64,000 nucleotides of DNA, from the IMG/VR virus record IMGVR_UViG_3300035126_000982; one strand, written 5' to 3'. Within the stretch, counting starts at the first letter, position 1. The number at the start of each line of letters is the position of its first letter. This document shows, in pieces, positions 685-43,704 of this stretch. The position numbers and the translations under genes are program-made. The DNA comes from an uncultured virus (IMG/VR IMGVR_UViG_3300035126_000982) (Duplodnaviria; Heunggongvirae; Uroviricota; Caudoviricetes). The notes under the pieces are model-generated. The model was not told the DNA's origin. It worked only from the letters and a program-made list of their open reading frames with translations, and ran no database searches.

Positions 685-780
685 TTAGTTGATTCGCAAT
701 ACTATTTATAAAAGAAAAGGACTCAAGAAGAGTCCCTTTCTACCTTATAGAATGCGAATCAACTAAGGTAAAAGTATTTA
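685..780 (-). promoter_or_regulatory. Late promoter-antisense sRNA-terminator-late promoter cassette (copy A)
   Basis: TAAATA 775-780; stem TACCTTA/TAAGGTA; 753-766 complementary to 685-698; hairpin 714-740; TATAAATA 703-710. Confidence 0.7.
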
Positions 781-817
781 GTAGATAATAAAAATTAATT
801 ATACACTAAACATTTAG

Positions 818-1110
818 CGTCTCGTGCAAGGCTCGAACTTGCGACTTATTGCTTAGCGTACCACTACAGATTTCCCTGCCAATCTTCCAATTGTTTGTGG
901 TCTGGACCATCCCTCCATCATATCCATAAAGACTTAGATGCTTCCCGTCTGGCCTCTACACCTTCAAGATTTCTCTTGCTTGGCTCGGGATTGCCATATT
1001 CATAAAGAACTTAGGTTTCCCCGAATTTGAGAAGTTACATTCATAAAATTTCTTCTATGAAGCTCCGTTTAACTTAAGGCAATTGTTCTAATCCACTGAA
1101 CTAACGAGAC
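818..1110 (-). tRNA. tRNA-Arg(TCT) interrupted by a group I intron
   Basis: Exons 1110-1076 and 856-818 join to GTCTCGT..ATTGC CT-TCT-AA GCAAT..TTCGAGC..ACGAGAC-G. Confidence 0.9.
857..1075 (-). mobile_element. Group I intron, 219 nt, IC3-like, no ORF
   Basis: 5' exon ends in U, intron ends in G; P1 CUU/GAG; P2 TTCATAGAA-GAAA-TTTTATGAA; AAATTCGGGGAAACC, GGCAATCCCGAGCCAAGC; P7-like GGCCA/TGGTC. Confidence 0.9.
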
Positions 1111-1199
1111 ATAAAAACCCCAAAACATAAAAACCAATAAAAACCAGTAATTCCTAAAAATTCCTAGATTTTACTTAGGTCTAAGGGGTTATTTTTGAT

Positions 1200-1558
1200 G
1201 GACCAGCCGTGATCGGACTTCATAAGAGCCCGCCAGAGGACTGATCGCTATCAGTGTTATTTAGACAAGGCCGGTGAGGTATCCCCATACGTTTCCAAAG
1301 TGTCACTGGTTCCCATTCTCCGTTTACTTTCCTTACCTTGTAAAAGGGTCTCCAATAGCTGTTCTTATCTCCCATAACAGAAGATGCAGATATCGCATCT
1401 GCAGAAGACAGTCCCATAAAGGAACCGCTGGGAATTCCACCCAGAACCCATAATAAGAGGATCAGGGGTGATCAGTCCCCCGACCTAAGAAAACTTAGGA
1501 TTTAATCAAAAGACCGGATTTCTCCAGAATTTTGCGATATGTGGCCCCTCAACCACGA
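1200..1558 (-). ncRNA. Candidate structured ncRNA(s) in the tRNA cluster
   Basis: GC-richer than flanks with dense hairpins (CTGGA-GAAA-TCCGG, CCTAAG/CTTAGG, CTGGG/CCCAG, TGCAGAT/ATCTGCA, GGGCT/AGTCC). Confidence 0.45.
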
Positions 1559-1565
1559 CTAAAAC

Positions 1566-1613
1566 TAGATGATTTTTTTTACATTGCAAGTAATTAAATT
1601 GCTGAATCACCTA
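1566..1613 (-). ncRNA. CAGCA mini-RNA unit 1 (inner anticodon-like loop TT-GCA-AT)
   Basis: Stem TAGGTGATT/AATCATCTA, CAGCAATT, inner TTAC-TTGCAAT-GTAA. Confidence 0.65.
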
Positions 1614-1615
1614 AA

Positions 1616-1729
1616 TCGGGGAAGAAAGATTCAAACTTTCACTGAACCGGCTCCCAAAGCGTATAATTGCGGTTAATATCTTAAACAAGATACCTTTTAC
1701 GGCGCCTCTATCAATTGGGCTATTCCCCG
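1616..1729 (-). tRNA. tRNA-Pro(TGG) with a 39-nt insertion in the anticodon stem (1661-1699)
   Basis: Acceptor CGGGGAA/TTCCCCG, T arm GAAAG-TTTGAAT-CTTTC; deleting the insert restores CCGGC-TTTGGGA-GCCGG. Confidence 0.75.
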
Positions 1730-1734
1730 GAAAC

Positions 1735-1784
1735 TAGATGGTCTTTTATGTACCCAAAACATATGAGAATTGCTGAACCATCTA
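1735..1784 (-). ncRNA. CAGCA mini-RNA unit 2 (inner anticodon-like loop TT-TGG-GT)
   Basis: Stem TAGATGGT/ACCATCTA, TCAGCAATT, inner TATGT-TTTGGGT-ACATA. Confidence 0.65.
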
Positions 1785-1797
1785 TGTGTTTATTTAT

Positions 1798-3264
1798 CTA
1801 AGCAAAAACCTCCCCAATAGCCGCATAACGGTCACTATAAACGGTATCGTTCATGGTGTCAACCGGAGTAACGACTTTATCAGTCATAATGGACTTAAGA
1901 ATCGAAGGACTACAACCAGACACAAGACAAGTACCAGTATCGTGGATAGTCATAGGGACGTTACCACCAATTGCGTTAACATTCCAGAAAACCAGTTGTG
2001 GCATCTCATAGCCTGCCTTTCGGTAGATTTTTTCAATTTGTTCAAAGTTAGTTCTCTTATTAGAACTACATGCCTGATCAAACTGCATATCAGAAACAAT
2101 AATTAGTTTCTGTGGCATATCCTCAGGTGCAACATCATTACTCATACCTGCATCAAGAACAGTTTTAAAAACGGCCATAAGATTAGTATTCATACCCCAG
2201 GCCGCACGGGAAAGATTCTCAATACGTTTGCCAATAGTAGAACCAACAATAGTTTGTAGTTCAGGACTTTCAGAAAAAGTCAGGAACCTATCTTTCCATA
2301 CAGGAGCAGTATTTCGCTCTGCAATATACATCGCAAGGGAGATGGAAACCGCCATAGGACGACCATACATCGAACCAGAAACGTCGGCAACTACTAGACC
2401 GTTAAATTGATTATCTTCCATATAATTAGGAAGTGCTTCCCACTGAAGATCAATGGTCTTGTCACCGCGAGCGCCCTTATAAAGATACTGTTCAACAATA
2501 TCATAAGGATACAAAGTAGAAGCATTGATTTTTGCTTCACCATTTTCGACAGCACTCAGATATTGGGCATAACGCTCGCCATCTTGCTTCTGGAATGCCT
2601 TACGGTACATAAATGCGGCGCGAGAAGGCACCTTGGAATAGTCAATTGCAGACCATTCTTTGGAGCACATTGCTTGCTCAACAATGCGAATTTGAGTGCG
2701 GAGATTGCTTAGAACCTTACGATATTCTTTTTCGGAAAGACCCAGATGTGATGCGATTTTACGGCCTAGGCGCTTGCTATCTTTACTGGAAGCATTGATA
2801 GATGGCAGCCACTTTGCGAGCAGAGAAACCTTACCATCAGTCTTCAGATGAAGACGGTCAAGATCAAGTTGTGCCTGAATTACATTAAGAACAGTATTCC
2901 AAGCAGGAGTATTTTCTAGAACAAGCAAGTCATCCCAACGACCATATTCTGGAACAAGAGAAACGAGTTTCACACCAACTTCGCCATTTTCCTCAACAAG
3001 ATACTTGAAAAGTTGACGGAAGATAGATCGTTCTCCCTGTCCTCCACGAATATCGCGTGCCCAGAAAAGAATACGGGTTGCAGTCTCAGGCTCTTCCTTA
3101 AAAGCAAGAGCAAAAAGTTTTTGGGCCTTATTAATGTCATTTCGACAGGCCGCGATCTGACCAAAAAGATCCACACAAGAATCAAGAGTAGACTTATAAG
3201 CCTTGGCTCCATTAAGAGTCTCGGTGGCATTCAGTTCAGATTTAATAGCAGTAATAAAAGTCAT
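1798..3264 (-). CDS. DUF2828-type protein, helical N-terminus plus C-terminal vWA domain (TROVE/Ro60-like architecture)
   Basis: Motifs RDIRGGQGER, YGRWDDL, AKWLPS, IDYSKVPS, MIDAS DVSGSM, SDMQFD, LVFWNV; probable start MTFITAIK at 3264. Confidence 0.8.
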   Translation of the reverse strand: MTFITAIKSELNATETLNGAKAYKSTLDSCVDLFGQIAACRNDINKAQKLFALAFKEEPETATRILFWARDIRGGQGERSIFRQLFKYLVEENGEVGVKLVSLVPEYGRWDDLLVLENTPAWNTVLNVIQAQLDLDRLHLKTDGKVSLLAKWLPSINASSKDSKRLGRKIASHLGLSEKEYRKVLSNLRTQIRIVEQAMCSKEWSAIDYSKVPSRAAFMYRKAFQKQDGERYAQYLSAVENGEAKINASTLYPYDIVEQYLYKGARGDKTIDLQWEALPNYMEDNQFNGLVVADVSGSMYGRPMAVSISLAMYIAERNTAPVWKDRFLTFSESPELQTIVGSTIGKRIENLSRAAWGMNTNLMAVFKTVLDAGMSNDVAPEDMPQKLIIVSDMQFDQACSSNKRTNFEQIEKIYRKAGYEMPQLVFWNVNAIGGNVPMTIHDTGTCLVSGCSPSILKSIMTDKVVTPVDTMNDTVYSDRYAAIGEVFA

Positions 3265-3273
3265 AGTTTTTAC

Positions 3274-3339
3274 AAGTTGATTGGTAAATTGTCTTTTACC
3301 TAAGTTGTTTTGGAGACAGTTTGTATGCTGTATCAACTT
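3274..3339 (-). ncRNA. CAGCA mini-RNA unit 3, in the DUF2828 leader
   Basis: Stem AAGTTGAT/ATCAACTT followed by ACAGCAT, inner TGTCT/AGACA stem. Confidence 0.55.
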
Positions 3340-3344
3340 TAGGC

Positions 3345-3392
3345 TAGATGGGTGGTTTCCGATAGTGAAGGATTTAATTGCTGTCCCATCTA
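3345..3392 (-). ncRNA. CAGCA mini-RNA unit 4
   Basis: Stem TAGATGGG/CCCATCTA followed by ACAGCAATT. Confidence 0.6.
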
Positions 3393-3437
3393 AAATGGCG
3401 TCTTTTTAGGCTATGTGCCTAACGACTTCCACCTTTT

Positions 3438-3485
3438 AAGTATCCCACATGTTCTCTGATTTGTCAAGAGGATTGTGCCAGTTGA
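3438..3485 (-). promoter_or_regulatory. Sigma70-like early promoter with upstream ACTGGCACA motif
   Basis: TTGACA (3467-3462) and TG-G-GATACT -10; ACTGGCACA recurs near 3916-3924 and 11286-11294. Confidence 0.6.
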
Positions 3486-3516
3486 TCAAGTGTCAAAACG
3501 TTAGATTAACTTTTAA

Positions 3517-3858
3517 TCAAGTTAAGTCATAAATGTATTCGGGTTTAGGTTTAGTTTTACTTAAACGCTTGAGAGATTCGTTAAATTCTAAATCACTACG
3601 CAACTCTTCTTTTGCTTCTTCTAAAGTGAGAAAGAAACCCTGGCCAAGAAACCCTCGACCTTCATTTAGAAAAGGTTTAATGTGGCTAGGTTGATATATA
3701 TCCGTCCACCAAAACCACAAAAATTTTCGTTGAACATAGTAAATTGTATTTCCACGTTCAACAACTTTTTTGATACGATAGTTTTTCATAGGATTTGGAT
3801 CTCCTGGTAGAAAACCTTCGCGGATAAGTCGGCCAGGAGGGGGTTCAGGTTTTTTCAT
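3517..3858 (-). CDS. Hypothetical protein
   Basis: 113-aa ORF downstream of an early-promoter motif. Confidence 0.65.
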   Translation of the reverse strand: MKKPEPPPGRLIREGFLPGDPNPMKNYRIKKVVERGNTIYYVQRKFLWFWWTDIYQPSHIKPFLNEGRGFLGQGFFLTLEEAKEELRSDLEFNESLKRLSKTKPKPEYIYDLT

Positions 3859-3926
3859 TTTAATCTCAACAACCCTTTAATTAAAGCACACCTCATCAAA
3901 TCTATCAAGGAGCATGTGCCAGTTGA

Positions 3927-4169
3927 TCAACCGGAGATCTCTTGCATAATCTCCGAAAGTCGCATCTGCGTATCATAAGACAAAGATTCTAGTTCTTTTT
4001 TATGATCATCGACCCGCTTTAAAAACCGCCAATATTCCTCTCTCACCTGATCAAAAGTAACGGCCCGATTAAGAATCAGCCAATCATAATCATTCTGAAC
4101 AACGGCAGCCGTGTCCATAATTTCAGAAGTCAGGGCCTTAAAGCGATTAAACAATTGTTCTTCGTTCAT
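3927..4169 (-). CDS. Hypothetical protein
   Basis: 80-aa ORF coupled to the upstream ORF. Confidence 0.6.
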   Translation of the reverse strand: MNEEQLFNRFKALTSEIMDTAAVVQNDYDWLILNRAVTFDQVREEYWRFLKRVDDHKKELESLSYDTQMRLSEIMQEISG

Positions 4170-4447
4170 TAGATATTCTCTAGTTCATTGGCAATGGCGA
4201 GGAATTTGCGGCGAAAATGTTGATTGTTTTGCCACTCACGATCAGCTTCATCGTCCCAGAACTGACTCAATCCTGGGTCTGGTTCATCTGGGACCAGCTG
4301 ATCCACGGTGGCGCGGAGGGTGGTGGCGGCAATGTGAGCCATACGAGCCGCCTCATTTGGGATGTCGGCGGGATCAAGTCCATATTCGCTTTGTGTTAGG
4401 GTGGTCAGCACCACCCGAGTATCTGAAGAAATGTCTTTCATAATCAA
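4169..4447 (-). CDS. Hypothetical protein, tandem paralog family
   Basis: Shares AA.LRA.VDQ and IA.EL motifs with the next two ORFs. Confidence 0.65.
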   Translation of the reverse strand: MIMKDISSDTRVVLTTLTQSEYGLDPADIPNEAARMAHIAATTLRATVDQLVPDEPDPGLSQFWDDEADREWQNNQHFRRKFLAIANELENI

Positions 4448-4731
4448 AACTCTAGTTCATCGGCAATAGCAAGAAGTTGATCCTGTGCCTGGGTATGTCC
4501 CCCATAAGCGGTTAGCCCAAGTTGATCTTTAAATTGAATCTGAAGTGCAGCAGAGCGAATAGCGGCGGCAGCAATCCATCTAGCATAAGAATCGGATTCT
4601 CCAGCGGACATCCGATACATCACATCACTTAGGACTTCCTGGGCAGAAGGAGAGAGGTTATCCAAGTGGCATTCCTCCATCGTTGAACTCACTAAGAGGA
4701 CCTTCAGAGTATTCATCCATAATATAGTCAA
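4444..4731 (-). CDS. Hypothetical protein, tandem paralog family
   Basis: LSPSAQEVL..AAAIRS..IADELE; true start probably internal. Confidence 0.6.
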   Translation of the reverse strand: MTILWMNTLKVLLVSSTMEECHLDNLSPSAQEVLSDVMYRMSAGESDSYARWIAAAAIRSAALQIQFKDQLGLTAYGGHTQAQDQLLAIADELEF

Positions 4732-4969
4732 TTTTTAGCTCAGAGGCAATTTCGTTAAGAGCATCAATACAATTTTGGACTCCACTTATAAACTCTGTTT
4801 TGGATTGTTTCTGGATCTCGTTTTTCCACTGGTCAGCAACAGCTTGAAGAGCAGCAGAGATCTGTGACCGACGAGTACCTTTAATGTCACCACATTGGAC
4901 TGGGCAATTTGTCCAAGCAGCGTCCCAGACTGTCTGGGTAATAGGAGATAAATCAGTCATAATCAGCAC
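4658..4969 (-). CDS. Hypothetical protein, tandem paralog family
   Basis: MTDLSPITQTVWDA..AALQAVADQ..IASELK. Confidence 0.65.
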   Translation of the reverse strand: MLIMTDLSPITQTVWDAAWTNCPVQCGDIKGTRRSQISAALQAVADQWKNEIQKQSKTEFISGVQNCIDALNEIASELKIDYIMDEYSEGPLSEFNDGGMPLG

Positions 4970-5178
4970 CTCATAAGTTCGCCGCCATGAATCTGATTTA
5001 ACTGATTCTGGTGAGAAGGGGGACCATAAGACGGGTCGATTTCATGTTTAAAAACCAGGGCAAGATGCCTCTCAATAATCTCTACCTGCTCATGAGTAAG
5101 AGACATACCAGATTGAGCCTCGCCGCGACGAAGTTCAAAATAACCTTGTAGCCAATAGCAAAATTCAGTTGATTTCAT
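4963..5178 (-). CDS. Hypothetical phage protein
   Basis: FCYWLQGYFEL..QVEIIERHLALVF. Confidence 0.7.
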   Translation of the reverse strand: MKSTEFCYWLQGYFELRRGEAQSGMSLTHEQVEIIERHLALVFKHEIDPSYGPPSHQNQLNQIHGGELMRC

Positions 5179-5253
5179 AAACCCCTAATAACTTTCAGTA
5201 TAATACCCCAATAAATCCATAAAAACCAAATAAGTAGACAGTTTAAAAAGTGT

Positions 5254-5427
5254 CTACTTTTTCTCAACAAAATCCTTGATCTGATCAGCCAGGACTTCGA
5301 TCTGTTCTACTGTAGGGAATGGAGTGTACGTGCCTTCCCTGGCAGCTTCTCTTTTATTTGCAAAATCTTCGGTAGCAATTAGTCTGGCTTCCTGAAAAAT
5401 TTGAAAGCGTAATTCATAAGGTGTCAT
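5254..5427 (-). CDS. Hypothetical phage protein
   Basis: MTPYELRFQIF..IKDFV with GGAG RBS. Confidence 0.6.
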   Translation of the reverse strand: MTPYELRFQIFQEARLIATEDFANKREAAREGTYTPFPTVEQIEVLADQIKDFVEKK

Positions 5428-5469
5428 TTGTTTTCTCCTGTGTTTGTGTGTGTTTGGCACTAGGGCCAA

Positions 5470-5544
5470 TCCGGTTATTAAGATTTGAACTTAAATTTTT
5501 CCTCCTCCCAAAGGAGGTGCCATACCAAGTTAGGCGATAACCGG
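5470..5544 (-). tRNA. tRNA-Pro(TGG), uninterrupted
   Basis: CCGGTTA/TAACCGG acceptor, CCTCC-TTTGGGA-GGAGG, TTAAG-TTCAAAT-CTTAA. Confidence 0.9.
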
Positions 5545-5567
5545 TTATAATCTATATAGCACACCTT

Positions 5568-6014
5568 TCAATCTTTGTGAACCCACGGGGCCTTTATGCC
5601 AATTTCCCCACCTAAAAGACTCTGAGCAGTACTTCCATCAGGCTCTTTTTCATAAAAAACGGCATCTTTAATAATCTTTTTTTGCTCTTCGGTATAATCA
5701 CCAGTTTCTATTTCTTTTAAAATAGTCTCATTGACCATATTAACCGGTTCAGGTTCTTCTAATTTCTCATAATTTTCTATTGCCTTATCAACATCCCTCT
5801 CGACCCTTTGATCAAGAAGTTCTGGGGTTTTTATAATGTACTCATTTAGGGTATTATCGATCCAGCCTCTTTTATGAAATTCTCTTTGAATTTCATCAAC
5901 CAGGGGCCATAATTTATCCTTGGGAATCTTAAACACCCTAGAAATAAATTCAATAATCGCCTCAATAATCAGGCTAATCTTGGCCCAATCAAAGATAGTT
6001 CGTTTGGTTTTCAT
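5568..6014 (-). CDS. Hypothetical protein
   Basis: 148-aa ORF. Confidence 0.65.
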   Translation of the reverse strand: MKTKRTIFDWAKISLIIEAIIEFISRVFKIPKDKLWPLVDEIQREFHKRGWIDNTLNEYIIKTPELLDQRVERDVDKAIENYEKLEEPEPVNMVNETILKEIETGDYTEEQKKIIKDAVFYEKEPDGSTAQSLLGGEIGIKAPWVHKD

Positions 6015-6271
6015 GAGTCCAGAAATCGTCGTTAATCATGTCATCATCATATGGTTCATGCATGAGTTCTTGGACTTTTAAATGCCAGACTCTCTCAAAC
6101 AAATCTCTATAATCTTCTTCTTTAATCATCGTTCAATAATTTTTCTAATGGATCACCACCGCCTTTTAAGATTTGACAGGCTCTTTTATAATACATATTG
6201 TTTGTATTTCCTGATGCCTCCATGGCTTCTTTGACTTTTTTCCAATTTTCTCTAGTTGTTTCGTCCAATGT

Positions 6272-6643
6272 TTAGTACCCGTGATTTTCGATGGTTTTTG
6301 TATAATGACGCATAATTTCTCCAGCAACAGAGTTTGCCTCATTTTCACAATCTGATCCAGATGTTGGATCTAATTCTGCCCCTGAAATTTTCTGCTTGTA
6401 ATGCACCATCTCATGAGCCAAAGTTCTCATCACGTCCAACGGATGTCTGTTAGCTATTTGAATTTTAATAATATCATTCATAAGATCAAAACATCCAAAG
6501 GTTTTGTTTTCAATAGAAAACTTTGGATCATTAATAATAACAATCTCTGGTAGATCATCTAGGCCAAGATAGTCCTTTACAAAACTAGTAAAGGACTGAA
6601 TCTGTTTTTCTCTAGACTCTACAAGAAATTGTTTGTATAACAT
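6272..6643 (-). CDS. Putative zinc metallopeptidase-like protein
   Basis: RTLAHEMVH (HExxH) and downstream ENEAN. Confidence 0.7.
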   Translation of the reverse strand: MLYKQFLVESREKQIQSFTSFVKDYLGLDDLPEIVIINDPKFSIENKTFGCFDLMNDIIKIQIANRHPLDVMRTLAHEMVHYKQKISGAELDPTSGSDCENEANSVAGEIMRHYTKTIENHGY

Positions 6644-6655
6644 TTTTAATTCTAT

Positions 6656-6901
6656 TTATCGAACTTCAAAGTCCAGCCTTTTTACTCCACGTTGTTTCCT
6701 CTCCTCTTGCCACATAAGATCCGAATTAGTCAGATGCTTATTTGAGGCCTTTTCATAAGACTCAAGCATAACCACCTGAGAAAGATCCAGGGCCGTGATT
6801 TTATCGTTGCGGATAGATGCCATATTTGGACACCCGCAGGTTCCAAAACCATGTACCTCATTTCCACACATTCTACATCTAATTTTAAGCATAAAAAACA
6901 C
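6656..6901 (-). CDS. Small Cys-rich hypothetical protein
   Basis: CxxC..CGCPN..LDFEVR. Confidence 0.6.
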   Translation of the reverse strand: MFFMLKIRCRMCGNEVHGFGTCGCPNMASIRNDKITALDLSQVVMLESYEKASNKHLTNSDLMWQEERKQRGVKRLDFEVR

Positions 6902-6931
6902 CTCAAGTTATTTAAACCTGAGGTATTTATA

Positions 6932-9271
6932 TCACTCTGCTTTAGCGAAGAAATTGTGCAAGCATTGGCTTGCATTAATTCTTACATGCTCAAGAGTATA
7001 ATCAACCAAAAGTTGACCATTCTCATAAATAGTTACTAACTCGTCTTTATTCCAGGGTCTTTCTGGAACAGTCTGATATTCTCCTTGTTCATTTTTGATG
7101 AGCTGAAGTCTACCCTTTTTAGATGTTTTGCCTGGGTCGGTTACAGGGTCTTTATAAACGTCACGCCAGGTTCCGTTTACATTTACCGAACTGCACTTCA
7201 TTGCGAATTTAAAATCATCACGATTTACGTGTTGAAGCAATCCGCCACCTTGACCGAAGGCAATGTTATCCGAACTGTATCCATTTGCTTCTAGAACGTG
7301 AAGAACCCGGTCAATAGTTTCATAATTCACACCGTCCCCTTGAATGAGTCTGACGTGATTTAGAACCTTATAACCCTTAGAGTTCATAGTACTTCCAAAG
7401 TGATTATCAAGAATTTGAGCACACTTTAGATTGACTTCTACTGGGTCCCCAGAATTACCAGAAACCGCGATTCCCCTATTCCTTTTTACTAGAACCATTC
7501 CACTAGGAACTTTAACGCAATGTATAGTTCCTTTATAATTTACTTTAGTTTTAGTAATAGATTGCCCACCAGCATAGGGAGTATCTAATATGTGGGTAGT
7601 ATAGACTGTAGAGAAATGTGGTTTTCTATTGTCCTCCGCTACTGAAATTAAAACCCCCTTCCCAGCTGAAATAGAAATGTATTCTACTACATCCACGTTA
7701 GATTTGATAGTGGTATCATACTTAAATCTACCATCGTTTCTAATGGACGAATCCCAATGCTTCAATTCTTCGATGAATTGTTCACACCAATTGCCATCTA
7801 AATTAGAAATGTCAACCCAATCAAATGTTTTAGATACTAAATTATCTATGGGAACTGAAATAGTTATAGTAGATTGACCTTTTCTACTAGTAAGATAATA
7901 CACATTAAATTTATAATCTAGATTATTAAGTATATTAAGTAATCTGTTGTGCTTTCGTTCCTTTTGAAAATTAAATTCTATTTTATAATTCATTGAAGAT
8001 GCTTTTTTAATACATCCATCTGCTTGTAGAGCGATTAAAAATCTCTCATGCCAAGTTAGTTGTTTTCCGGATGTCTTTGCTTTTGCTGAACGCAATTTTC
8101 TATAAGCCCAATTTCCTGGTTTATAATCTTGAGCCTCTTGTATACGAATTTTATCATTTCGATCAATAGTTACCACCCTATGATTGGGTGTAACTAATAG
8201 ATCAATTTTACCATGAAAATCACGAATTTCATACATATCCCCCTCATATTGTTCATTTACAATTTTAAGAGGTTTAACAAATTCATAAGTCATGTCATCA
8301 TTAACTTGTGCAACTAGATCGTTCTCTGTTAGGTTAGAAAAATATTTCCATCCACTAGGAGTCAAAATCTGCGTCTGATCGTCGTAGCAATCAGGCCTGA
8401 CCACCAAGGTAGCCCCAGATTCAATTACTTGTTCTTTAAGTTCTTCTCCCCAAAGTTTATCGCAAGCATTGTAGATGTCATAACTATCACTTACACAAGC
8501 AATAATAGCACCCGGCCTCGCATAAAGATTCAACATATTACGATATGCCTCTACTTCATTTTCCTTACCCCAACTCGTGATAGTACTATGTTCTGATGCT
8601 GGAATACTGTAGCCCGCCATATCTTCGTGATAAAATTCTTTACCATAAAGAAGCGCCGCAACAGTGTCGGTGCCCTTAAAATTAACTAGGTGAGCTAGTC
8701 CACCAATTCCTGCTGATTCATAAGAACTCACTCCGCGAAATCCAAAGTCTTGCATCTTAAAATCAATAAGATTTGGGTCTCCATTGCGGATAAGATAATT
8801 GAGAATAAGTTTCTTAGAATTATAAGAATTACTTGCAACAGTCGTTGGATACCAAATTGCGCGAAGTAGAGCAGTTTCTAGGAAACTAGTCAACCAATAG
8901 CAATTTGGGTCAGTGTTCTCAATTGTAAGTAAAACGTTCTTTACGGGGACTACAGTTCCCTCTGGAACAGCCTTGATTCTTACGGGGAGATGTCCACCGT
9001 GCTTTTTGACGATGTATTCCCAACCACCACGGTAGAATGGTTCACCGTGAGCCTGAATAATTGCCTCGGCAATATCAATATCTTCCATTCTAATTGGCTT
9101 CATCAGATAGTCTTTTAGAAACATCTGAAGACCAAAGAAGAGAGTTTCATCGTGATGACCACCACGACTTTCAATGTAAGAAAATACACCTTCCGTCTGT
9201 GGGGGATATTGATTAAACTGCGAATACTTGTAAGAATCCGAATTGAGCAGTAAATTTTTGTTTAGGTCCAT
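6932..9271 (-). CDS. nadV: Nicotinamide phosphoribosyltransferase with intein
   Basis: DSYK, DFGFRG, ASEHS, VSDSYD, RPD|SGDP, QGDG, FGQGG; spliced length 467 aa. Confidence 0.92.
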   Translation of the reverse strand: MDLNKNLLLNSDSYKYSQFNQYPPQTEGVFSYIESRGGHHDETLFFGLQMFLKDYLMKPIRMEDIDIAEAIIQAHGEPFYRGGWEYIVKKHGGHLPVRIKAVPEGTVVPVKNVLLTIENTDPNCYWLTSFLETALLRAIWYPTTVASNSYNSKKLILNYLIRNGDPNLIDFKMQDFGFRGVSSYESAGIGGLAHLVNFKGTDTVAALLYGKEFYHEDMAGYSIPASEHSTITSWGKENEVEAYRNMLNLYARPGAIIACVSDSYDIYNACDKLWGEELKEQVIESGATLVVRPDCYDDQTQILTPSGWKYFSNLTENDLVAQVNDDMTYEFVKPLKIVNEQYEGDMYEIRDFHGKIDLLVTPNHRVVTIDRNDKIRIQEAQDYKPGNWAYRKLRSAKAKTSGKQLTWHERFLIALQADGCIKKASSMNYKIEFNFQKERKHNRLLNILNNLDYKFNVYYLTSRKGQSTITISVPIDNLVSKTFDWVDISNLDGNWCEQFIEELKHWDSSIRNDGRFKYDTTIKSNVDVVEYISISAGKGVLISVAEDNRKPHFSTVYTTHILDTPYAGGQSITKTKVNYKGTIHCVKVPSGMVLVKRNRGIAVSGNSGDPVEVNLKCAQILDNHFGSTMNSKGYKVLNHVRLIQGDGVNYETIDRVLHVLEANGYSSDNIAFGQGGGLLQHVNRDDFKFAMKCSSVNVNGTWRDVYKDPVTDPGKTSKKGRLQLIKNEQGEYQTVPERPWNKDELVTIYENGQLLVDYTLEHVRINASQCLHNFFAKAE
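7454..8389 (-). mobile_element. Contiguous intein (312 aa) with LAGLIDADG-type endonuclease
   Basis: Starts CYDDQT, block B VTPNHR, IALQADG, ends VSGN before Ser (Gly instead of penultimate His). Confidence 0.88.
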
Positions 9272-9342
9272 TTTAAACTCCTTAAAATAGGTTTAATTTC
9301 GGCGTCTATCGCCTGATTGTGTTTTTGTGACTTTAACACCTG

Positions 9343-9651
9343 TCAAGCATTCAATGCCTTAAGTTCTCGCTCAAGACTTTCTTTTTTTAAGGCTAATTTA
9401 GATAATTCAGTTTGAATTTCCTTTACCTTATCATCTCTATCTCTATGTTGCTGATACCATGCCAAAGTATCATCAGATAGTCTATGTTGCATATGAAGCT
9501 CAAAAATTACTTCCCCCATTTCACAACACATATTCAACAAATATGTAATTAATTCAGAATTAGTTTTATTAATTCCATATTTTTTATTGTTATTACTTTT
9601 TTGTTCGAGTTTAATTTCTTCTTGCGTAGGTTCCGGTGTAAAGCATGGCAT
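9343..9651 (-). CDS. Hypothetical protein
   Basis: 102-aa ORF inside the NAD cluster. Confidence 0.6.
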   Translation of the reverse strand: MPCFTPEPTQEEIKLEQKSNNNKKYGINKTNSELITYLLNMCCEMGEVIFELHMQHRLSDDTLAWYQQHRDRDDKVKEIQTELSKLALKKESLERELKALNA

Positions 9652-9662
9652 AATTTTTTACC

Positions 9663-10154
9663 TCAAGGTTGATATTCTACTACTGTGACATCAGCATAAT
9701 CAGAAACGTCTTCTGAAAACTTTTCAATAATTTTGGAAATTCTACTCCAATCACCACCAGCAAGTCCAGCGCCAATTTGAGGGAATCCAATGCTTACTTT
9801 TCTATGTGGTCCCCGTGTATAATCAGGGACACATTTAGAAAATAACTCTAAGAATTTTTCAAAGGCACCATATTCAAATACATCTTTAGTATTACTCATT
9901 TCATACTGAGTGTAGGCATTTATCACAGTAAAAATTGTTTTTCCTGTGTTTATTTGAGCCATAGTAAACCTACCCAACTTTAATTTATCCCCCCTAGTTG
10001 TACACATATCCGCTTGTTTTACTTTGGGATATCGGTCTGCAAGTTGTTTTGCCAACCCCCCACCCATAACATTATAGCAGTTACAACCTTGAATAATAAT
10101 ATCAAAATTACCTTTTTCGGCAAGTTTAATTAGATCTCCTTTGATAGTTTTCAT
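9663..10154 (-). CDS. Macro-domain (ADP-ribose binding/hydrolase) protein
   Basis: IKGDLI, QGCNC..MGGGLA, FPQIGAGLAGGDW. Confidence 0.85.
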   Translation of the reverse strand: MKTIKGDLIKLAEKGNFDIIIQGCNCYNVMGGGLAKQLADRYPKVKQADMCTTRGDKLKLGRFTMAQINTGKTIFTVINAYTQYEMSNTKDVFEYGAFEKFLELFSKCVPDYTRGPHRKVSIGFPQIGAGLAGGDWSRISKIIEKFSEDVSDYADVTVVEYQP

Positions 10155-11197
10155 ATAAAATATCGAATAATTTGATAATGGTCTTCAAAGCACTCTCTTG
10201 GGTCAAGTTCAGAGAAAGGAATCCAGAATGCCTTATCAGCATCAGAACCACCTTTTACTCTTGGAAGTTCTCCATCAGGAAGAACAATATTAAAGGCATG
10301 AGTAATTGTTCGCCCTCGGCTGCTTCTATAAATATCATCAAATACATGAGTATTTTTAATACATCCACGAAGAACCGGAGAAGGAACCTTAAGTCCGGTT
10401 TCCTCTCGGAGTTCTCGAATCATAGCATCTTCTAGGGAGGAATCGGTGTTTGCGTCTAGAAAACCGCCTGGCAAGGCAATCAGGCCCTTTCCAGGATAGG
10501 CATTTCTACGGACCATCAAGACATGACCAGATTGAAACACTACAGAATCTACTGTAACAAAAATTGGTGGCCAGGGCAAGGAAGCATACTGAGACTTATA
10601 TTTCTCGACAAATCTACGCTCATTTACGATATGATTATGCCATTCAGAACTCTTCATACTATCAAGATAGTTGAAGATTTGTTCTGGAACAACACTTTTC
10701 ACAAAGTCCATATTCGGTTCTTCTACAAAGTAGAGTTCCCTGATCTGAGTTGCACTTAGATTTTGCTCAAGAGGAACCTCAATTAGTTCCCATTGTGGAA
10801 ACATCTTCAGGTAATAAGAAGTCTCGTCTTTTTCACAACCGATGATACCAACATTAGCAGATGGTGAAATAGTCTCAAGACAATATTTTACCTTTTCTTG
10901 AACTTCATTACACCACTTGGTATCACCATAAATATCTTCTTGAATTTCAATTTCTAGTGGAGCTTCTTCTGAAGTCACTTCTAAAATGGATTGCCTCAAG
11001 GCAGACCAGTAACTATGAGTATTCAGGTGCTCAAGAGAAATTTGAAATGGATTTTTGTAGGTTACTGGTTTATACTGAGAACCAATAATCATAATGAGAT
11101 TATCAGTCAGTTCATATGCTCTTTTTACAATTTCTAGATGAGCATTATGAAAAGGCTGAAATCTTCCAATAAAAACAATTGCGTCGTATTTTTTCAT
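10151..11197 (-). CDS. nadM: Bifunctional NMN adenylyltransferase / Nudix ADP-ribose pyrophosphatase
   Basis: GRFQPFHNAH, SATQIR, Nudix box GGF..RELREETGL. Confidence 0.9.
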   Translation of the reverse strand: MKKYDAIVFIGRFQPFHNAHLEIVKRAYELTDNLIMIIGSQYKPVTYKNPFQISLEHLNTHSYWSALRQSILEVTSEEAPLEIEIQEDIYGDTKWCNEVQEKVKYCLETISPSANVGIIGCEKDETSYYLKMFPQWELIEVPLEQNLSATQIRELYFVEEPNMDFVKSVVPEQIFNYLDSMKSSEWHNHIVNERRFVEKYKSQYASLPWPPIFVTVDSVVFQSGHVLMVRRNAYPGKGLIALPGGFLDANTDSSLEDAMIRELREETGLKVPSPVLRGCIKNTHVFDDIYRSSRGRTITHAFNIVLPDGELPRVKGGSDADKAFWIPFSELDPRECFEDHYQIIRYFI

Positions 11198-12805: not shown

Positions 12806-12808
12806 ATA

Positions 12809-32505: not shown

Positions 32506-32512
32506 TTTTGTA

Positions 32513-32562: not shown

Positions 32563-32564
32563 GA

Positions 32565-33887
32565 TCATTTAACAAACAACTTATCCCCAATGGTCAGTCC
32601 ACTCAAGATATTTTTCTCCCCTTCAGTAGTTGGGAATATGTGTCTGTCAGAGCAGACGATTTTCTTACCTGATTTAGTTGTAATTTCATAAACTTCTTGA
32701 GTCTCTATCGGATAAACTTCATTAACCTTGACATGTCCAGAATGAGATAAAATTTCATCTCCAACTTTAACATCTTTTATTTCAATTTTTTGGCCATCTT
32801 TTTTAGTTACTATAGTATCTAAACCGAGACATCGATTAAATTGTACCGCCGAGACTGTTGGTATATTATATTCCACACCCAATCCCCTCAATTCTTCTGC
32901 AATAGATTTTACATAAGTGTAAGAATTGGAAGTGCTTGTTTTATATCTAGATGAAGAACAGAGATTTAAATAATCAATTACAATTGCATCAGGAATAAAA
33001 TTCTTTTTCATTTCAAGTTCTTTCAATAATACTTTAAAATGATTTGCACTTGCAGTTCCGGGTGGATACTCCTTAATGATAAGTTTACCTTGAGTCTTTT
33101 TACTCAATTGAGTTGTCTTACTTAAAAACTGCTCTTTTGATAATTTTGAAATATCTTGAACCGGTACATCAAGAAGATTGGCATCAATTCGTTCTGCAAT
33201 TCTCTCCTCGGCCATTTCAAGAGTGATGTATAAGACATTCTTTCCTTGAAGAAGAGTTGCCGCTGAAAAATGGCAAAGAAAAAGACTTTTACCAACACCA
33301 GGCGGTGCCACAAAAAGATTTAAAGTTTTGGGTGATAAACCACCATCTGTAATTCTGTTAAGATAATCAACATCAAAAGGAATTTTAAGATCTTTTTTAT
33401 GATAAAACTCATAACGAGCCTCAACGTCTTCGATATAGTCATGCCCAATTGATATATCAAATGAAACAGAAAGTGCCTCTTGTAAGATAGAAGGAATAGC
33501 ATCTCGATTTCTTTTCGAGTCACCACCATCCGCAATATGAATAGATTCCATAAGGGCCAGATAAATCGCCCGATCTTTACACCACTTTTCGGTGGTCGCA
33601 AAAAGCCATTCACTTTCTACTGGATTGTAATCAAGCCCAGAAGTAATCTCCATACAATCCTTAAAGGACTGTTCAGTTAAATCAGTCCTGTTCTCAATTT
33701 CAATCTCAATTGCTTCTTTGGTTGGTAGTTGATTATAAGAAGAAAAGAATTCTTGAATTTCTTCAAAAATTACTTTTTCTGAATAATTCTGAAAATATTC
33801 AGATTTTAGGTAAGGTAGAATTTTTCGTACAAATTCTTCATTATATATTAAGTTTTTTAAAATCAGTAGTTCGACTTTATCCATCAT
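32565..33887 (-). CDS. gp41: gp41 helicase N-terminal part with split-intein N fragment (88 aa, 32568-32831)
   Basis: GVGKSL, ITLEMAEE, IDYLN, QFNR|CLGLDT..CSDRH. Confidence 0.92.
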   Translation of the reverse strand: MMDKVELLILKNLIYNEEFVRKILPYLKSEYFQNYSEKVIFEEIQEFFSSYNQLPTKEAIEIEIENRTDLTEQSFKDCMEITSGLDYNPVESEWLFATTEKWCKDRAIYLALMESIHIADGGDSKRNRDAIPSILQEALSVSFDISIGHDYIEDVEARYEFYHKKDLKIPFDVDYLNRITDGGLSPKTLNLFVAPPGVGKSLFLCHFSAATLLQGKNVLYITLEMAEERIAERIDANLLDVPVQDISKLSKEQFLSKTTQLSKKTQGKLIIKEYPPGTASANHFKVLLKELEMKKNFIPDAIVIDYLNLCSSSRYKTSTSNSYTYVKSIAEELRGLGVEYNIPTVSAVQFNRCLGLDTIVTKKDGQKIEIKDVKVGDEILSHSGHVKVNEVYPIETQEVYEITTKSGKKIVCSDRHIFPTTEGEKNILSGLTIGDKLFVK

Positions 33888-40784: not shown

Positions 40785-40790
40785 AATAAA

Positions 40791-41456
40791 TTACTCAAAG
40801 GTGGAATCAGGCTCCATTGCAACCCAATATGTCAATGGAATTTTTTTGTTTATAAACTTGGAAATACCCTTCCTTGAAATCACCACATCATAAGACCCTG
40901 GATAGAACTGCAGATTCTCATTTTTGATGTGCATACAGAACTTTTCGGTGGTTGATCCAACTTCAATAGAATATTCATTTGAGGTGTCGTTCTTTTTATC
41001 GTGAACGATCAATTGAATAGTCTCTCCATCACCAACCACCGAGAGGTCATCCAAGGAATAAATCTGCCTGGCCTTTACAATCTTATCAAGAAAGGCCTGT
41101 TCCATAATGAAGCAAATGTCCTGAGAAGGCATTTTGATTTGCTTGTCTGGAAGATTTGGAATTGTTGAAAGACTTGCATAAAAATACTTGATCTTTCTTT
41201 TTCCTTCACTTAGAACGACGTACTTATCACTGGAAAAATCTAGATCTGGATCATCTAAGAGATTAAAGCTATTGAGAAATTGATTGAGATTGTAAATTCC
41301 AAATTCCTTTTCAAATTTCTCTGGGATGGTTGCTTCTCCATAAACGGCCCTGGATCCTTTGACTGTTTTTAGAGAATTTCCGGGTTTAATATGAATTGAT
41401 TGACTGATTGATGCGAAGTTCTTTAGAAGAGCAAGAGTTTCTGGTGAAAGTTTCAT
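40791..41456 (-). CDS. gp45: Sliding clamp
   Basis: MKLS..LKNFASI..FGIYNL..YWVAME. Confidence 0.9.
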   Translation of the reverse strand: MKLSPETLALLKNFASISQSIHIKPGNSLKTVKGSRAVYGEATIPEKFEKEFGIYNLNQFLNSFNLLDDPDLDFSSDKYVVLSEGKRKIKYFYASLSTIPNLPDKQIKMPSQDICFIMEQAFLDKIVKARQIYSLDDLSVVGDGETIQLIVHDKKNDTSNEYSIEVGSTTEKFCMHIKNENLQFYPGSYDVVISRKGISKFINKKIPLTYWVAMEPDSTFE

Positions 41457-41740
41457 TTATTTTCAATTAGGTCAAGATGATTAATAAGAAGCATAGTATA
41501 ATGTAGAACCTTAAAGAGATCTGCTCGGGGAGTTCCCTTGCAATCATATCTGTCGATATATTTTGTGACATTTCCAGCGCAGAATCCTTCTCTTCGGGAA
41601 TACTTAATTTTATCTATTGTTTGATCATTACTCCCAGAAGACCTATCAACATAATGTTGATTATATGTAGTTTTCAGATATTCTTCTAGTTGTTTGAGAA
41701 TCCTGTCCTCATTATATTTCCAAAAGTGTTCGTTACTCAT
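41453..41740 (-). CDS. Conserved hypothetical protein
   Basis: TYNQHY..FCAGNVTKY..DLFKVLHY. Confidence 0.7.
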   Translation of the reverse strand: MSNEHFWKYNEDRILKQLEEYLKTTYNQHYVDRSSGSNDQTIDKIKYSRREGFCAGNVTKYIDRYDCKGTPRADLFKVLHYTMLLINHLDLIENK

Positions 41741-41909
41741 AATATTACAATAAAAAATCGGCTCTCTTGTGGGAGAGAACCGATTTTAGCACGTTAATGG
41801 GGAATTTGTCAAGTAGTCAGGAGATCAGGGCACCTAGGGCCGTGTTTTTTACAAAGTATTGCATCTGGTGTTTGTGCATAATTTTCTTCTATTAAGAAGT
41901 TTATTGGGT

Positions 41910-42713
41910 TCATCGACCACTTGCTCTACGACGACGGGCGCGATAGTTTGTTGGAACTGTTCTATATCCAGACAAAGAGTTTGTTGATACTGTTTCTACA
42001 TCATCATTACCATCATAATCATGTTTCACTTCAACATTCTTTTCAGCATTCATGCGTTCTACACTTGCTTTTGCTTGTTTAGTTGCTCCTGAGCCATATT
42101 GATATGGATTTTTATGTCCTTCCTTACCCATATCACGTCTAACGCCAGTTTCTACTCTATCTTGCCATTTTGGTTTTTTATATATGGTTGAACCTCCACG
42201 CCTTACCTGACGAATATCATTCCCAGTGATTCTATTTCCAAGAGATCTTTGAGAACCTTTAACTGCTTCATCAAGAACCTCTTCAACAATGCCTTCGCGC
42301 CATTCTTCGGACATGTTAGCCATAATTACATCAGCGTCTTCGTAAGAATCACAGAAACCTTCTGACACCAGATATTCAGAGACTAGATCATATAGGTCTA
42401 GTTCTTCTTTTTGCTCTTTTCTTTTATTATTCTCCACTTTGCTAGGATTATGAACTCTAGCGGGTCCAGCATTTTTCATCAGTAGTGGATTTTTAGAGGA
42501 TTTTATAATTCTTTTTGGCGCTTCTTCATCAAGAGCACTTAAATAAGCCTTATAAAGTTCTTCATCACTGTATTGATCAAGATCGTAACCCTCTTCAATA
42601 AGGGCCTCAACCCATTCTTCAATGGAAAGCATTTCTTCTTCAGAAAGGGTTTCTTCATTATAAACACCGTGGCGATAGGCTTCGTTTAGGCGCATTAAAA
42701 TCTCGTATTGCAT
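41910..42713 (-). CDS. Putative head-internal protein
   Basis: EGYDLDQY and SEGFCDSYEDA blocks, repeated LxE motifs, basic C-terminus. Confidence 0.65.
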   Translation of the reverse strand: MQYEILMRLNEAYRHGVYNEETLSEEEMLSIEEWVEALIEEGYDLDQYSDEELYKAYLSALDEEAPKRIIKSSKNPLLMKNAGPARVHNPSKVENNKRKEQKEELDLYDLVSEYLVSEGFCDSYEDADVIMANMSEEWREGIVEEVLDEAVKGSQRSLGNRITGNDIRQVRRGGSTIYKKPKWQDRVETGVRRDMGKEGHKNPYQYGSGATKQAKASVERMNAEKNVEVKHDYDGNDDVETVSTNSLSGYRTVPTNYRARRRRASGR

Positions 42714-42778
42714 TTTTAAATAGTAAATTATTGATTACTATTATTTAGTTTATTTTAAATTTAAAAATTTTAACATGA

Positions 42779-43591
42779 TCATATAATTTTTATGCGGTTA
42801 GAAGTATCGATTCCTCTTTTTTTTTGATAATTTGAAAGACCACATGGTGTAGAGACATAACCAGTAATGGTACATTGCCATCTCTGAGCGTGTTGAACCC
42901 TTGATCCCTTTTTACCTCCTTTTTTACCCCCTTTTTTACCAGCTTTTCTACCGTTCTCACTTCTTTGCTCAAATGTCAATCCGCAAATTCCAGTTTTATT
43001 TTTTTTGTTTTTTTCCCCTCCTACTTTACCTCCTTTCTTACCGTTCGCACTTCTTTGCTCAAATGTCAATCCACAAACTCCAGTTCCATTTTCTTTATGT
43101 TTTTGCCCAACTATTTTACCTGCTTTTTTACTAGCCTCACTTTTTTGTTCAGGCGTCATTCCAAAAATTCCAGTACCATTTTCTTTATTTGTCTGTGCCC
43201 CCTTTCTACTAGCTTCACTTTTTTGTTCTGGTGTCATCCCAAAAATTGCAATACCCCTTTCTTTGTTAGATTGAGCTATTTTTTTACTATTTTCGCTTCT
43301 TTGCTCAAAAGTTAATGCAAAAATTCCAGTGCCATTTTCTTTATGTATTTGTCCTCCTTTTTTACAACCTAAAATTTGAGCCTCTTGTTTCGCCTCATCA
43401 ATAGTTATCTGCCCAGATAAGCACCTCCATGCAATCCGGTCTTCCTCATTACCCCATAATTGAAAATTACAGAAATGAAACATTGCGTGTTGAGTTACTG
43501 TTACCTCAACAAGATTTTCAGGTTCATTGCTCCCACCCATGTATCTCGGTACTAGATGATGTTTATGGGTGCGCTCGTTTGGTCTACACAT
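42779..43591 (-). CDS. HNH homing endonuclease with ~25-aa tandem repeats
   Basis: HKHHLVP..GG.N..NL..HAMFH; five GIxG(M/L)TxEQxSE-like repeats. Confidence 0.85.
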   Translation of the reverse strand: MCRPNERTHKHHLVPRYMGGSNEPENLVEVTVTQHAMFHFCNFQLWGNEEDRIAWRCLSGQITIDEAKQEAQILGCKKGGQIHKENGTGIFALTFEQRSENSKKIAQSNKERGIAIFGMTPEQKSEASRKGAQTNKENGTGIFGMTPEQKSEASKKAGKIVGQKHKENGTGVCGLTFEQRSANGKKGGKVGGEKNKKNKTGICGLTFEQRSENGRKAGKKGGKKGGKKGSRVQHAQRWQCTITGYVSTPCGLSNYQKKRGIDTSNRIKII

Positions 43592-43604
43592 TTTTACTGC
43601 TCTA

Positions 43605-43704
43605 AATTAGTTCGCTATTTCTATTTAGAAAATTTTATTGTTAAGGAGGAGAAATAAATCTCCTCCACCTGTTAAGCGCGAACTAATTCAGGTAATGTTA
43701 TTTA
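43605..43704 (-). promoter_or_regulatory. Late promoter-antisense sRNA-terminator-late promoter cassette (copy D)
   Basis: CCTG/CAGG stem enclosing 43678-43688, complementary to 43605-43615; hairpin 43645-43666; CTAAATA near 43622. Confidence 0.75.

Follow-up and report, generated by a model that had tools for sequence, protein, structure and literature searches.

A portable leader cassette with covarying complementary arms before homing-endonuclease-type genes of a T4-like cyanophage, with a possible separate small RNA

The stretch of DNA considered here, referred to as the window, is the 64-kb sequence of the uncultured virus record IMGVR_UViG_3300035126_000982 of IMG/VR. The relatives of the window's proteins in the phage collection were all Synechococcus phages and several IMG/VR contigs were identical, and judging from these relationships the window comes from a T4-like cyanophage; cultured phages were also searched by megablast with positions 14000-18000, and none matched. 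Among the selfish elements of T4-like phages, homing endonucleases are the main ones, and to our knowledge the restraint of their expression has been described for no more than a few coliphage and Aeromonas-phage genes. Four copies of a leader cassette were found in the window, all reading on the minus strand, two of them placed before nuclease-type genes and two before open reading frames (ORFs) of only 31 codons.

From 5' to 3', each cassette is composed of a first late-promoter box (P1), a small hairpin (SL1) displaying a segment (A), a terminator-type hairpin (T), a second late-promoter box (P2), the exact complement of the displayed segment (A') and the ATG of the gene that follows. This order had been proposed in an initial annotation made from the letters of the window, and it was found as described at all four sites (S1-S4, 4/4). 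P1 is a late-promoter-type box, (C/A)TAAATA, and SL1 opens 4-6 nucleotides (nt) downstream of it, with arms of TACCTTA/TAAGGTA at one site, CCTG/CAGG at two and GTCTG/CAGAC at one, and with A in the loop. P2 is TATAAATA at S1-S3 and CTAAATA at S4, with a gap of 4-6 nt between P2 and A' and of 6-16 nt between A' and the ATG. The length of A' is 14, 12, 15 and 11 nt at S1, S2, S3 and S4, respectively, and in each case it is the exact complement of A, which bears out the earlier observation that every segment matches its own leader over 11-15 nt. The whole module, a mobile leader unit, measures about 100-130 nt. Its copies and their parts are as follows.

667-781, minus strand: cassette S1, whole, with 14-nt exact complementarity
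S1 parts, minus strand: P1 CTAAATA at 775-781; SL1 arms TACCTTA/TAAGGTA at 764-770/741-747; A at 753-766
S1 parts, minus strand, continued: T at 710-740; P2 TATAAATA at 703-710; A' at 685-698; ATG at 667-669
680-685, minus strand: Shine-Dalgarno-like AAGGAG of S1
14728-14843, minus strand: cassette S2, whole, identical in 4 IMG/VR contigs
S2 parts, minus strand: P1 at 14836-14843; SL1 arms GCCTG/CAGGT at 14827-14831/14803-14807; A at 14814-14825
S2 parts, minus strand, continued: T at 14779-14801 (3 T only); P2 at 14757-14764; A' at 14741-14752 (12 nt); ATG at 14728-14730
17562-17669, minus strand: cassette S3, whole, with a terminator scan match at 17622-17603
S3 parts, minus strand: P1 at 17663-17669; SL1 arms GTCTG/CAGAC at 17653-17657/17629-17633; A at 17642-17656
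S3 parts, minus strand, continued: T at 17597-17622; P2 at 17590-17597; A' at 17571-17585 (15 nt); ATG at 17562-17564
43589-43705, minus strand: cassette S4, whole, with a matching leader after gp46 in the cultured phage B23
S4 parts, minus strand: P1 at 43699-43705; SL1 arms ACCTG/CAGGT at 43689-43693/43667-43671; A at 43678-43688
S4 parts, minus strand, continued: hairpin T at 43645-43666 (poor T run); P2 CTAAATA at 43622-43628; A' at 43605-43615; ATG at 43589-43591

The TAA within P1 of S4 doubles as the stop codon of a gp46-like gene. The terminator-like hairpin previously assigned to every copy proved canonical at S1 and S3 and weak at the other two sites, where the stem is followed by 3 T (S2) and 2 T (S4). 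The genes located behind the four cassettes are these.

13957-14730, minus strand: GIY-YIG homing-endonuclease-type gene behind S2, 257 aa (PF01541, E 3.5e-9)
42779-43591, minus strand: HNH-type nuclease gene behind S4, 270 aa, with relatives annotated as homing or HNH endonucleases
577-669, minus strand: 31-codon ORF (remnant) after S1, with no family match
17472-17564, minus strand: 31-codon remnant after S3, its N-terminal end like that of phage B23 gp294 (10/17 identical)

A GIY-YIG gene, an HNH gene and two remnants had been named downstream of the cassettes; the first and the remnants were recovered, and the S4 gene scored 16.1 bits on the Pfam HNH model, under the cut-off of 21.4, with its relative L034 passing at 22.5 bits. 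By eye, the C-terminal end of the S3 remnant resembles the last residues of the S4 nuclease, about 17 N-terminal and about 12 C-terminal residues being retained, and this remnant is likely to represent an in-frame internal deletion of a nuclease gene. The leader of the S3 remnant is still perfect, with its 15-nt complementarity, P1, terminator and P2. Some 100 nt upstream of S1, at 884-1081 on the minus strand, Rfam identifies a group I intron (RF00028, 53.6 bits, full model); a survey of the surrounding ORFs (about 437-1800, same strand) detected no long flanking ORF. Cassette S1 and the 31-codon ORF behind it may be what is left of an intron-associated endonuclease.

To place the four copies among their relatives, loci were gathered from IMG/VR in two ways. 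A protein-similarity search with residues 1-100 of the HNH nuclease, which is blind to the leader, yielded 20 loci, of which 14 carried the full cassette, 2 a simple hairpin and 4 neither; expressed as 13 distinct leader types, these same loci comprised 9 with the cassette, 1 with the simple hairpin and 3 with none. The second search used a DNA pattern (CCTGA, gap, CAGG, gap, TATAAATA NNNN TG) in which neither P1 nor any complementarity was specified. At least 120 stretches matched, and 80 fetched loci underlie the counts given below. Complementarity between loop and leader was bimodal in these 80 loci, with 52 showing 9-13 nt and 28 showing 3-7 nt; the former are treated as true cassettes (45 distinct) and the latter as chance hits. 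A motif search upstream of free-standing endonucleases in other cyanophages had been suggested for the window, and the module proved to be widespread in cyanophage contigs. P2 was located between A and A' in all four window copies and in all of the 19 plus 52 relatives.

The genes behind the module vary. Sorted by N-terminal motif, the genes behind 40 of the 45 distinct cassettes fall into five recurring nuclease-like types, and Pfam detected GIY-YIG, HNH or NUMOD3 behind the cassettes in the representatives that were scanned. One and the same A/A' combination, for example ATTTGACCGCA, was found before a GIY-YIG gene, an HNH-NUMOD3 gene and a truncated gene. These sequence comparisons support the view, already put forward for the window, of a portable module common to unrelated nuclease families. 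Among cultured phages it is carried by B3/B23 (after gp46) and by the Synechococcus phage S-SRM01, grown on Synechococcus sp. KCZYC6, where the cassette occupies about 192,421-192,520 of NC_070963. The B23 locus (L020, 827-2022) and the window at 42779-43705 have an identical A/A', both after gp46, and a C-terminal repeat region that is 51% identical, with N-terminal domains that differ (PRIYVYKIT type in B23, HNH in S4), a pair that reads as a domain swap behind a constant leader. In S-SRM01 (L167, 746-1447) the annotated start of the homing endonuclease gp297 falls inside the cassette terminator; the ATG at 801, after A', appears to fit the family better. It should also be noted that a decayed or orphaned copy (L011, 257-420) has kept P1, SL1 and T and lost P2 and A', and that in L017 and L070 a full leader stands before a 108-aa NUMOD3-only protein, that is, a nuclease gene without its catalytic domain.

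A further regularity in the relatives concerns P1, which had no part in the search pattern. A TAAATA ending 3-8 nt before CCTGA was present in 52/52 true cassettes and in 0/28 chance hits. In the 45 distinct cassettes P1 is ATAAATA in 29 and CTAAATA in 16, the spacer between P1 and the hairpin is 6 nt in 45/45, and the sixth nucleotide is a purine in 44/45. This pattern supports P1 as an obligate and precisely placed part of the module. In T4, the late-promoter box lies at -13 to -6 and is followed by an AT-rich spacer (PMC2988020). By this rule, RNA from P1 is predicted to start at the purine that opens SL1; for P2 the predicted start is the G in the invariant TG with which A' begins. At the level of sequence, then, the cassette carries a promoter of its own, the predicted promoter P1, for the strand containing A.

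The identity of the boxes was considered within the window itself. CTAAATA was found to be the commonest box before its genes, accounting for 17 of the 23 ORFs that have TAAATA at most 60 nt upstream, and from its position before these 17 ORFs and from the T4 rule it appears to be the phage's own late-type box. On the minus strand of the window TATAAATA has only 7 occurrences, three of which are P2 of S1-S3. The extended form (A/C/T)CTAAATA was seen 11-36 nt before many ORF starts (among them 12164, 16131, 26930, 29484, 38994 and 41910), often directly after a terminator hairpin; a terminator followed by a late box is a common intergenic unit here, for example before 16131-17408 and 29484-30098. 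A scan of positions 1-20000 for sigma-70 promoters stayed at chance level (66 found against 60.4 expected).

The complementarity of A and A' was followed through a pairing matrix of 35 non-redundant cassettes with 27 distinct A cores. A and A' were complementary in all 27 different pairs. Watson-Crick runs extended over 9-15 nt for cognate partners against mostly 4-5 nt for non-cognate ones, the 24 non-cognate runs of at least 9 nt (out of 1190) being attributed, though not checked pair by pair, to types sharing an A core. The cognate partner was the row maximum, or tied for it, in 28 of the 35 rows.

Covariation was assessed on a structure-blind MAFFT alignment of 40 cassettes, designated A4. 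This alignment leaves out the GTCTG-type cassettes S3, L024 and L029, the register of which was shifted by MAFFT, 15 of the 45 distinct pattern hits and the near-duplicates B23, L025, L026, L028, L016, L008, L015, L017 and L012, and five rows of a 'GCAAT' subtype stand one column off in it, which lowers the paired percentage. RNAalifold predicted just the A:A' helix from A4, with compensatory double changes at 8/8 of its pairs, and at one A:A' pair all four Watson-Crick types occur with the helix retained. The proportion of paired cells in the named structure was 91.8%, compared with 76.1% on shuffling (0/500) and 23-42% in slid registers; cells changed on both sides numbered 108 against 33 shuffled (0/500), and the covariation score was 0.423 against 0.156 shuffled (0/500). 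Compensatory changes were also observed between orthologous pairs, namely S4/L002, S3/L024 and S1/L034. When both strands were folded, 16 of 19 cassettes gave a better fold for the sense than for the antisense strand, with a mean difference of 4.6 kcal/mol. A and A' thus strongly covary, and the alignments point to a real pairing that acts at the RNA level. In the closing stem of SL1, swaps from G-C to U-A and from C-G to U-A were detected, plus one G-U. Against this, most SL1 columns are invariant in the largest alignment, the search pattern having fixed them.

On the window alone the case for the cassettes would be a modest one. Exact inverted repeats of at least 11 nt at cassette-like spacing occur 4 times and coincide exactly with S1-S4, and 100 dinucleotide shuffles gave a mean of 1.27 such repeats (sd 1.08, maximum 5). 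The count is therefore only about 2.5 sd over the shuffles, a mildly unusual value that lends the cassettes weak weight by itself. A chance origin was nevertheless ruled out, because the shared architecture and the relatives, with P1 in 52/52 against 0/28 and with covariation, are decisive. A scan of the window for units of P1, hairpin and terminator lacking an adjacent A' returned only S1, S3 and an unrelated structure near 48030, the scan being insensitive since its T-run filter missed S2 and S4. Over the whole window, Rfam at the gathering score passed only one transfer RNA (tRNA) and one group I intron and no cassette family, and around S1 it gave sub-threshold chance matches only (E 0.2-0.7).

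A search of public RNA runs with positions 13900-21900 listed none that contained this stretch. An RNA running from P1 to T was modelled. Such RNAs are predicted at 48-67 nt, and 19/19 fold as SL1 plus T. The two predicted from the canonical terminators of the window are given below.

711-769, minus strand: predicted S1 small RNA, 59 nt, from the sixth nucleotide after P1 to the T run; fold of -23.5 kcal/mol with two hairpins
17598-17657, minus strand: predicted S3 small RNA, 60 nt; fold of -23.6 kcal/mol

In the 45 distinct cassettes, a T run of at least 3 stands before P2 in 42, after a GC-rich hairpin. A' starts at the predicted first nucleotide of the messenger RNA (mRNA) in 17/19 cassettes and at the second in 2/19. 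Net cofolding of the small RNA with the first 60 nt of the mRNA gave a mean of -15.4 kcal/mol for cognate and -2.9 kcal/mol for non-cognate combinations, with the cognate mRNA as best partner in 14 of 15 rows and a net cognate binding of -10 to -20 kcal/mol. The RNA-leader pairs of S1-S4 are predicted to be mutually orthogonal (cognate -12 to -17 kcal/mol, non-cognate 0 to -7 kcal/mol). With mean unpaired probabilities of 0.62 for A and 0.77 for A', the folds predict that the P1-to-T RNA presents accessible complementarity to the translation-initiation region of its target.

A simpler arrangement is known from other phages. In the T-even phages and Aeh1, homing-endonuclease genes (I-TevI, I-TevII, I-TevIII, segB and mobE) are preceded by hairpins that sequester the ribosome-binding site and have a late promoter nested in them (PMC2988022). 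According to the principle described for T4, the mask acts on RNA that reads through, and an mRNA free of it is made from the late promoter lying between the arms (PMC2988022). Two hairpins of this simple type had been reported at 20619 and 32513 of the window, and both are present.

20614-20666, minus strand: simple form, hairpin with CTAAATA in the loop, its 3' arm stopping 3 nt short of the ATG of the GIY-YIG gene 19909-20613
32506-32562, minus strand: simple form, 14-bp hairpin (32549-32562/32513-32526) with CTAAATA in the loop, before ORF 31174-32505

L165, a relative of the form at 32513, has a different yet complementary hairpin. In the four simple forms (20619, 32513, L031 and L165) P1, the SL1 closure and T are lacking together; the box is followed by the 3' arm after 1-3 nt, compared with at least 4 nt in the complex forms, and the helix reaches within 2-7 nt of the ATG or overlaps it. 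For the GIY-YIG gene at 19909, a search for relatives found no more than two loci, both distant and without a late box.

The two simple forms of the window lie in fractured genes. The nrdA gene at 18831-21879 (minus strand) is divided into an N-intein part (20671-21879), the GIY-YIG gene (19909-20613) and a C-intein part (18831-19922); its middle piece carries a HINT domain at the N-terminal end, which suggests a further break in the gene. The gp41-type helicase gene at 30758-33887 (minus strand) comprises a part ending in Hint (32565-33887) and a weak C-intein match (30758-31189), with ORF 31174-32505, encoding 443 aa of no family, between the split-intein halves. Hairpins with a TATAAATA box before free-standing endonucleases in split-intein fractured genes were described by Dassa et al. 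(2009; PMC2677866), for environmental phages too, and this form corresponds exactly to the arrangement at 20619 (nrdA) and 32513 (gp41-type helicase). The four-copy cassette adds to it P1, the SL1 closure and T, none of which is mentioned for that form in the available part of the paper (PMC2677866).

Taken together, the core of the cassette may be regarded as a split ribosome-site mask. Its upstream strand, consisting of an anti-Shine-Dalgarno CCU and the variable 10-15-nt 'address' A, would pair with the nucleotides that open the late mRNA (A') and with the Shine-Dalgarno-like purines beside them. The long-range A:A' helix dominates the full-length folds (-33 to -45 kcal/mol), in which the SL1 5' arm also pairs, through its CCU, with a purine-rich AAGGAG or TAGAG adjoining A'. 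With T and P2 situated between the strands, transcripts initiated upstream would mostly end at T, those reading through would fold shut as in phage T4, and transcripts started at P2 would be free of the mask and translatable. P1 and T would supply the mask strand also as a separate late RNA, 48-67 nt in length, that could pair with the 5' end of the cognate mRNA and damp nuclease synthesis in trans. Cis masking of read-through RNA is expected from the T4 precedent; from the arrangement of the module we infer that P1 is active, that transcription terminates at T and that the RNA acts in trans. The mask strand is considered most likely to be made as a separate RNA because P1 stands exactly 6 nt before SL1, which is then followed by T. 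Our preferred reading, to which a probability of roughly 0.6 is assigned, is that the cassette is a T4-type mask acting in cis with its mask strand also produced as a separate, trans-capable RNA. A broader version can be offered only tentatively: each homing-endonuclease gene of these cyanophages would carry an address-coded trans-acting small RNA repressor, made up of a late promoter, a hairpin of 5-8 bp that displays the address, and a terminator; the address would evolve freely by compensatory change, several mutually orthogonal pairs could coexist in one genome (four here), and the module would move between families.

Several observations weigh against the preferred reading, and they bear chiefly on whether masking takes place in cis only. 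Under that explanation the cassette would be a T4-type ribosome-site hairpin with a terminator in its loop, P1 would be silent, very weak or conserved for another reason (as an upstream stop codon, as a cassette boundary or through promoter occlusion of P2), and any short RNAs would have no function. Precedents exist in T4, in Aeh1 and in fractured genes; the cis fold, formed within one molecule, is very stable, and in the T4 precedent masking works without a separate RNA. At 13 of 16 scored loci, as well as at the window's four, the cassette is co-directional with the upstream ORF or follows a tRNA or intron, so read-through could usually supply the mask without P1, and where upstream genes were scored co-direction was always found. 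The T runs are short in the S4-type hairpin (only 1-2 T in window S4, the L002 type and B23) and weak also in S2 and L040, which makes a discrete RNA doubtful at two of the four window copies, and a terminator followed by a late box is, as noted above, frequent between genes of this phage. The core helix stops 6-16 nt short of the ATG, with no occlusion of the start codon predicted, and S2 and S3 are without a clear Shine-Dalgarno sequence. In about 8 types the upstream gene uses the TAA of P1 as its stop codon; this explains part of the conservation of P1, but not in S1, S3, L023, L030 and L033-L035, and as a sufficient cause it was rejected, P1 being found also after tRNAs, an intron and TGA stops.

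Masking in cis only is nonetheless judged unlikely. It leaves unaccounted for the presence of P1 in 52/52 cassettes, its fixed spacer of 6 nt and the purine at the predicted start, and the co-occurrence of P1, the SL1 closing arm and T in 19/19 complex forms against 0/4 simple forms. Complementarity begins at the predicted +1/+2 of the P2 transcript in 19/19, a start which a cis mask does not need, and the 3' arm of SL1 shows both conservation and covariation even though nothing in the cis helix pairs with it.

It is much less probable that the small RNA is made for a purpose other than repression, such as protection of the mRNA from 5'-end-dependent RNases, marking for RNase III, or interference between co-infecting phages sharing an address. 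The location of A' at the extreme 5' end of the predicted mRNA would suit such roles, but the anti-Shine-Dalgarno CCU next to A pairs with the purines by A', which points to translational masking, and both the simple forms and the T4 precedent act by repression. A DNA-level element, with the inverted repeat around P2 as a protein operator or a recombination or insertion signature, can hardly be the explanation: I-TevI does repress itself through an operator overlapping its own late promoter (PMC2988022), and B23 and the window have both A/A' and the C-terminal DNA-binding repeats in common, but one A/A' stands before different nuclease families, so that A' does not track the protein, G-U pairs are tolerated, the sense strand folds better, the four Watson-Crick types at one pair keep the helix, and this helix runs on into the anti-Shine-Dalgarno/Shine-Dalgarno pairing. 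The operator or recombination signature was rejected as the principal reading on the shared A/A' across nucleases, the G-U pairs and the strand asymmetry.

The module was also compared with known classes of phage and bacterial regulators. In type I toxin-antitoxin systems the toxin is a small peptide, usually of less than 60 aa, and the toxin mRNA is stable and the antitoxin RNA labile; tisB/istR-1 and zorO/orzO are trans-encoded pairs of this type. The analogy with type I pairs drawn in the initial annotation holds as a functional likeness, in that a small RNA, here predicted together with its own promoter and terminator, lies beside its target and would form a short pairing with the 5' leader. 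It fails as a class assignment, since the targets are nucleases of 257 aa and 270 aa and not small toxic peptides; RNA and target are moreover in tandem on one strand, and no addiction logic is evident at the cassettes.

The closest relationship is with the T-even and Aeh1 hairpins. As in these, a homing-endonuclease gene lies directly downstream, a late promoter is located between the arms, the upstream arm is predicted to mask the initiation region, and several layers of control are combined, terminators included, as far as the available text describes them (PMC2988022). Unlike in the hairpins described there, the 5' arm of the cassette has its own late box P1 and a closing hairpin, and an intrinsic terminator separates the two arms; the 3' arm runs from the predicted +1 of the late mRNA to a point short of the ATG; and the paired segment is hypervariable (27 variants) in a module shuffled among nuclease families. 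The cassette can be read as an extension of the known T4 mask, with P1, the SL1 closure and T added to the simple hairpin form.

CfrI of cyanophage S-PM2 is an antisense RNA of about 225 nt linking psbA and F-CphI (Millard 2010, as given through PMC12197685 and a misc_RNA annotation). Like the RNA predicted here it is a non-coding RNA tied to a cyanophage homing-endonuclease gene, but by that account it lies opposite to and overlaps psbA and F-CphI, whereas the elements of the cassette are on the same strand as the target and upstream of it. The leader of F-CphI in S-PM2 has a terminator and TATAAATA only, with no P1 and no A/A'. With P1, SL1 and T on the strand of the nuclease gene and upstream of it, the module does not belong to the cis-antisense RNAs, and the label 'antisense' given to the RNA earlier has to be dropped for one encoded in tandem.

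Two further systems have part of the design. The PeSLs of T4-like phages are composite cassettes of a terminator and an early promoter (PMC4122927, PMC2839356) and, like the present module, are small, conserved, portable units at gene boundaries, implicated in modular shuffling (PMC4122927). They differ in having early promoters, both boxes of the cassette being of the late type (TATAAATA or CTAAATA), and the available text mentions neither a complementary leader arm nor a tie to endonucleases and does not contain the word 'cyanophage' (PMC4122927). Membership of this group was rejected on the late type of both boxes and on the chance-level result of the sigma-70 scan of positions 1-20000. StxS, a regulatory small RNA, arises by early termination of the late transcript of Shiga-toxin phage (PMC7547250). 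There too a phage late promoter is closely followed by a terminator to give a short RNA (here predicted), but StxS belongs to a lambdoid prophage and an antitermination context and, as presented in the text available, has no built-in complementary leader on the next gene (PMC7547250). A search of the literature turned up the simple hairpin form, the PeSLs and CfrI and no description of the composite module.

Some other features of the window should be recorded. At 6896-6928 (minus strand) TATAAATA runs into a 14-bp terminator-like hairpin with a second TAAATA in its loop, before ORF 6656-6892. A 512-aa protein encoded at 1798-3336 (minus strand) contains DUF2828 (E 1e-38) and DUF7788 (E 4e-50), and its gene adjoins an ORF-free stretch at 1100-1800, which could hold a non-coding RNA. 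Nested GC-rich hairpins with an inverted repeat (47943-47959/47992-48008) lie at about 47950-48030, where the genes switch from the minus to the plus strand.

For cyanophages, the comparisons indicate that freshwater and estuarine members use a standard, mobile and strongly covarying RNA device before at least five nuclease-like gene types. Should the unit from promoter to terminator be expressed, homing endonucleases would have in it their first dedicated small-RNA regulator. The cassettes would then also represent a natural library of orthogonal riboregulators, or RNA-leader pairs, as well as a new class of regulatory RNA, encoded by phages, that holds selfish nucleases in check.

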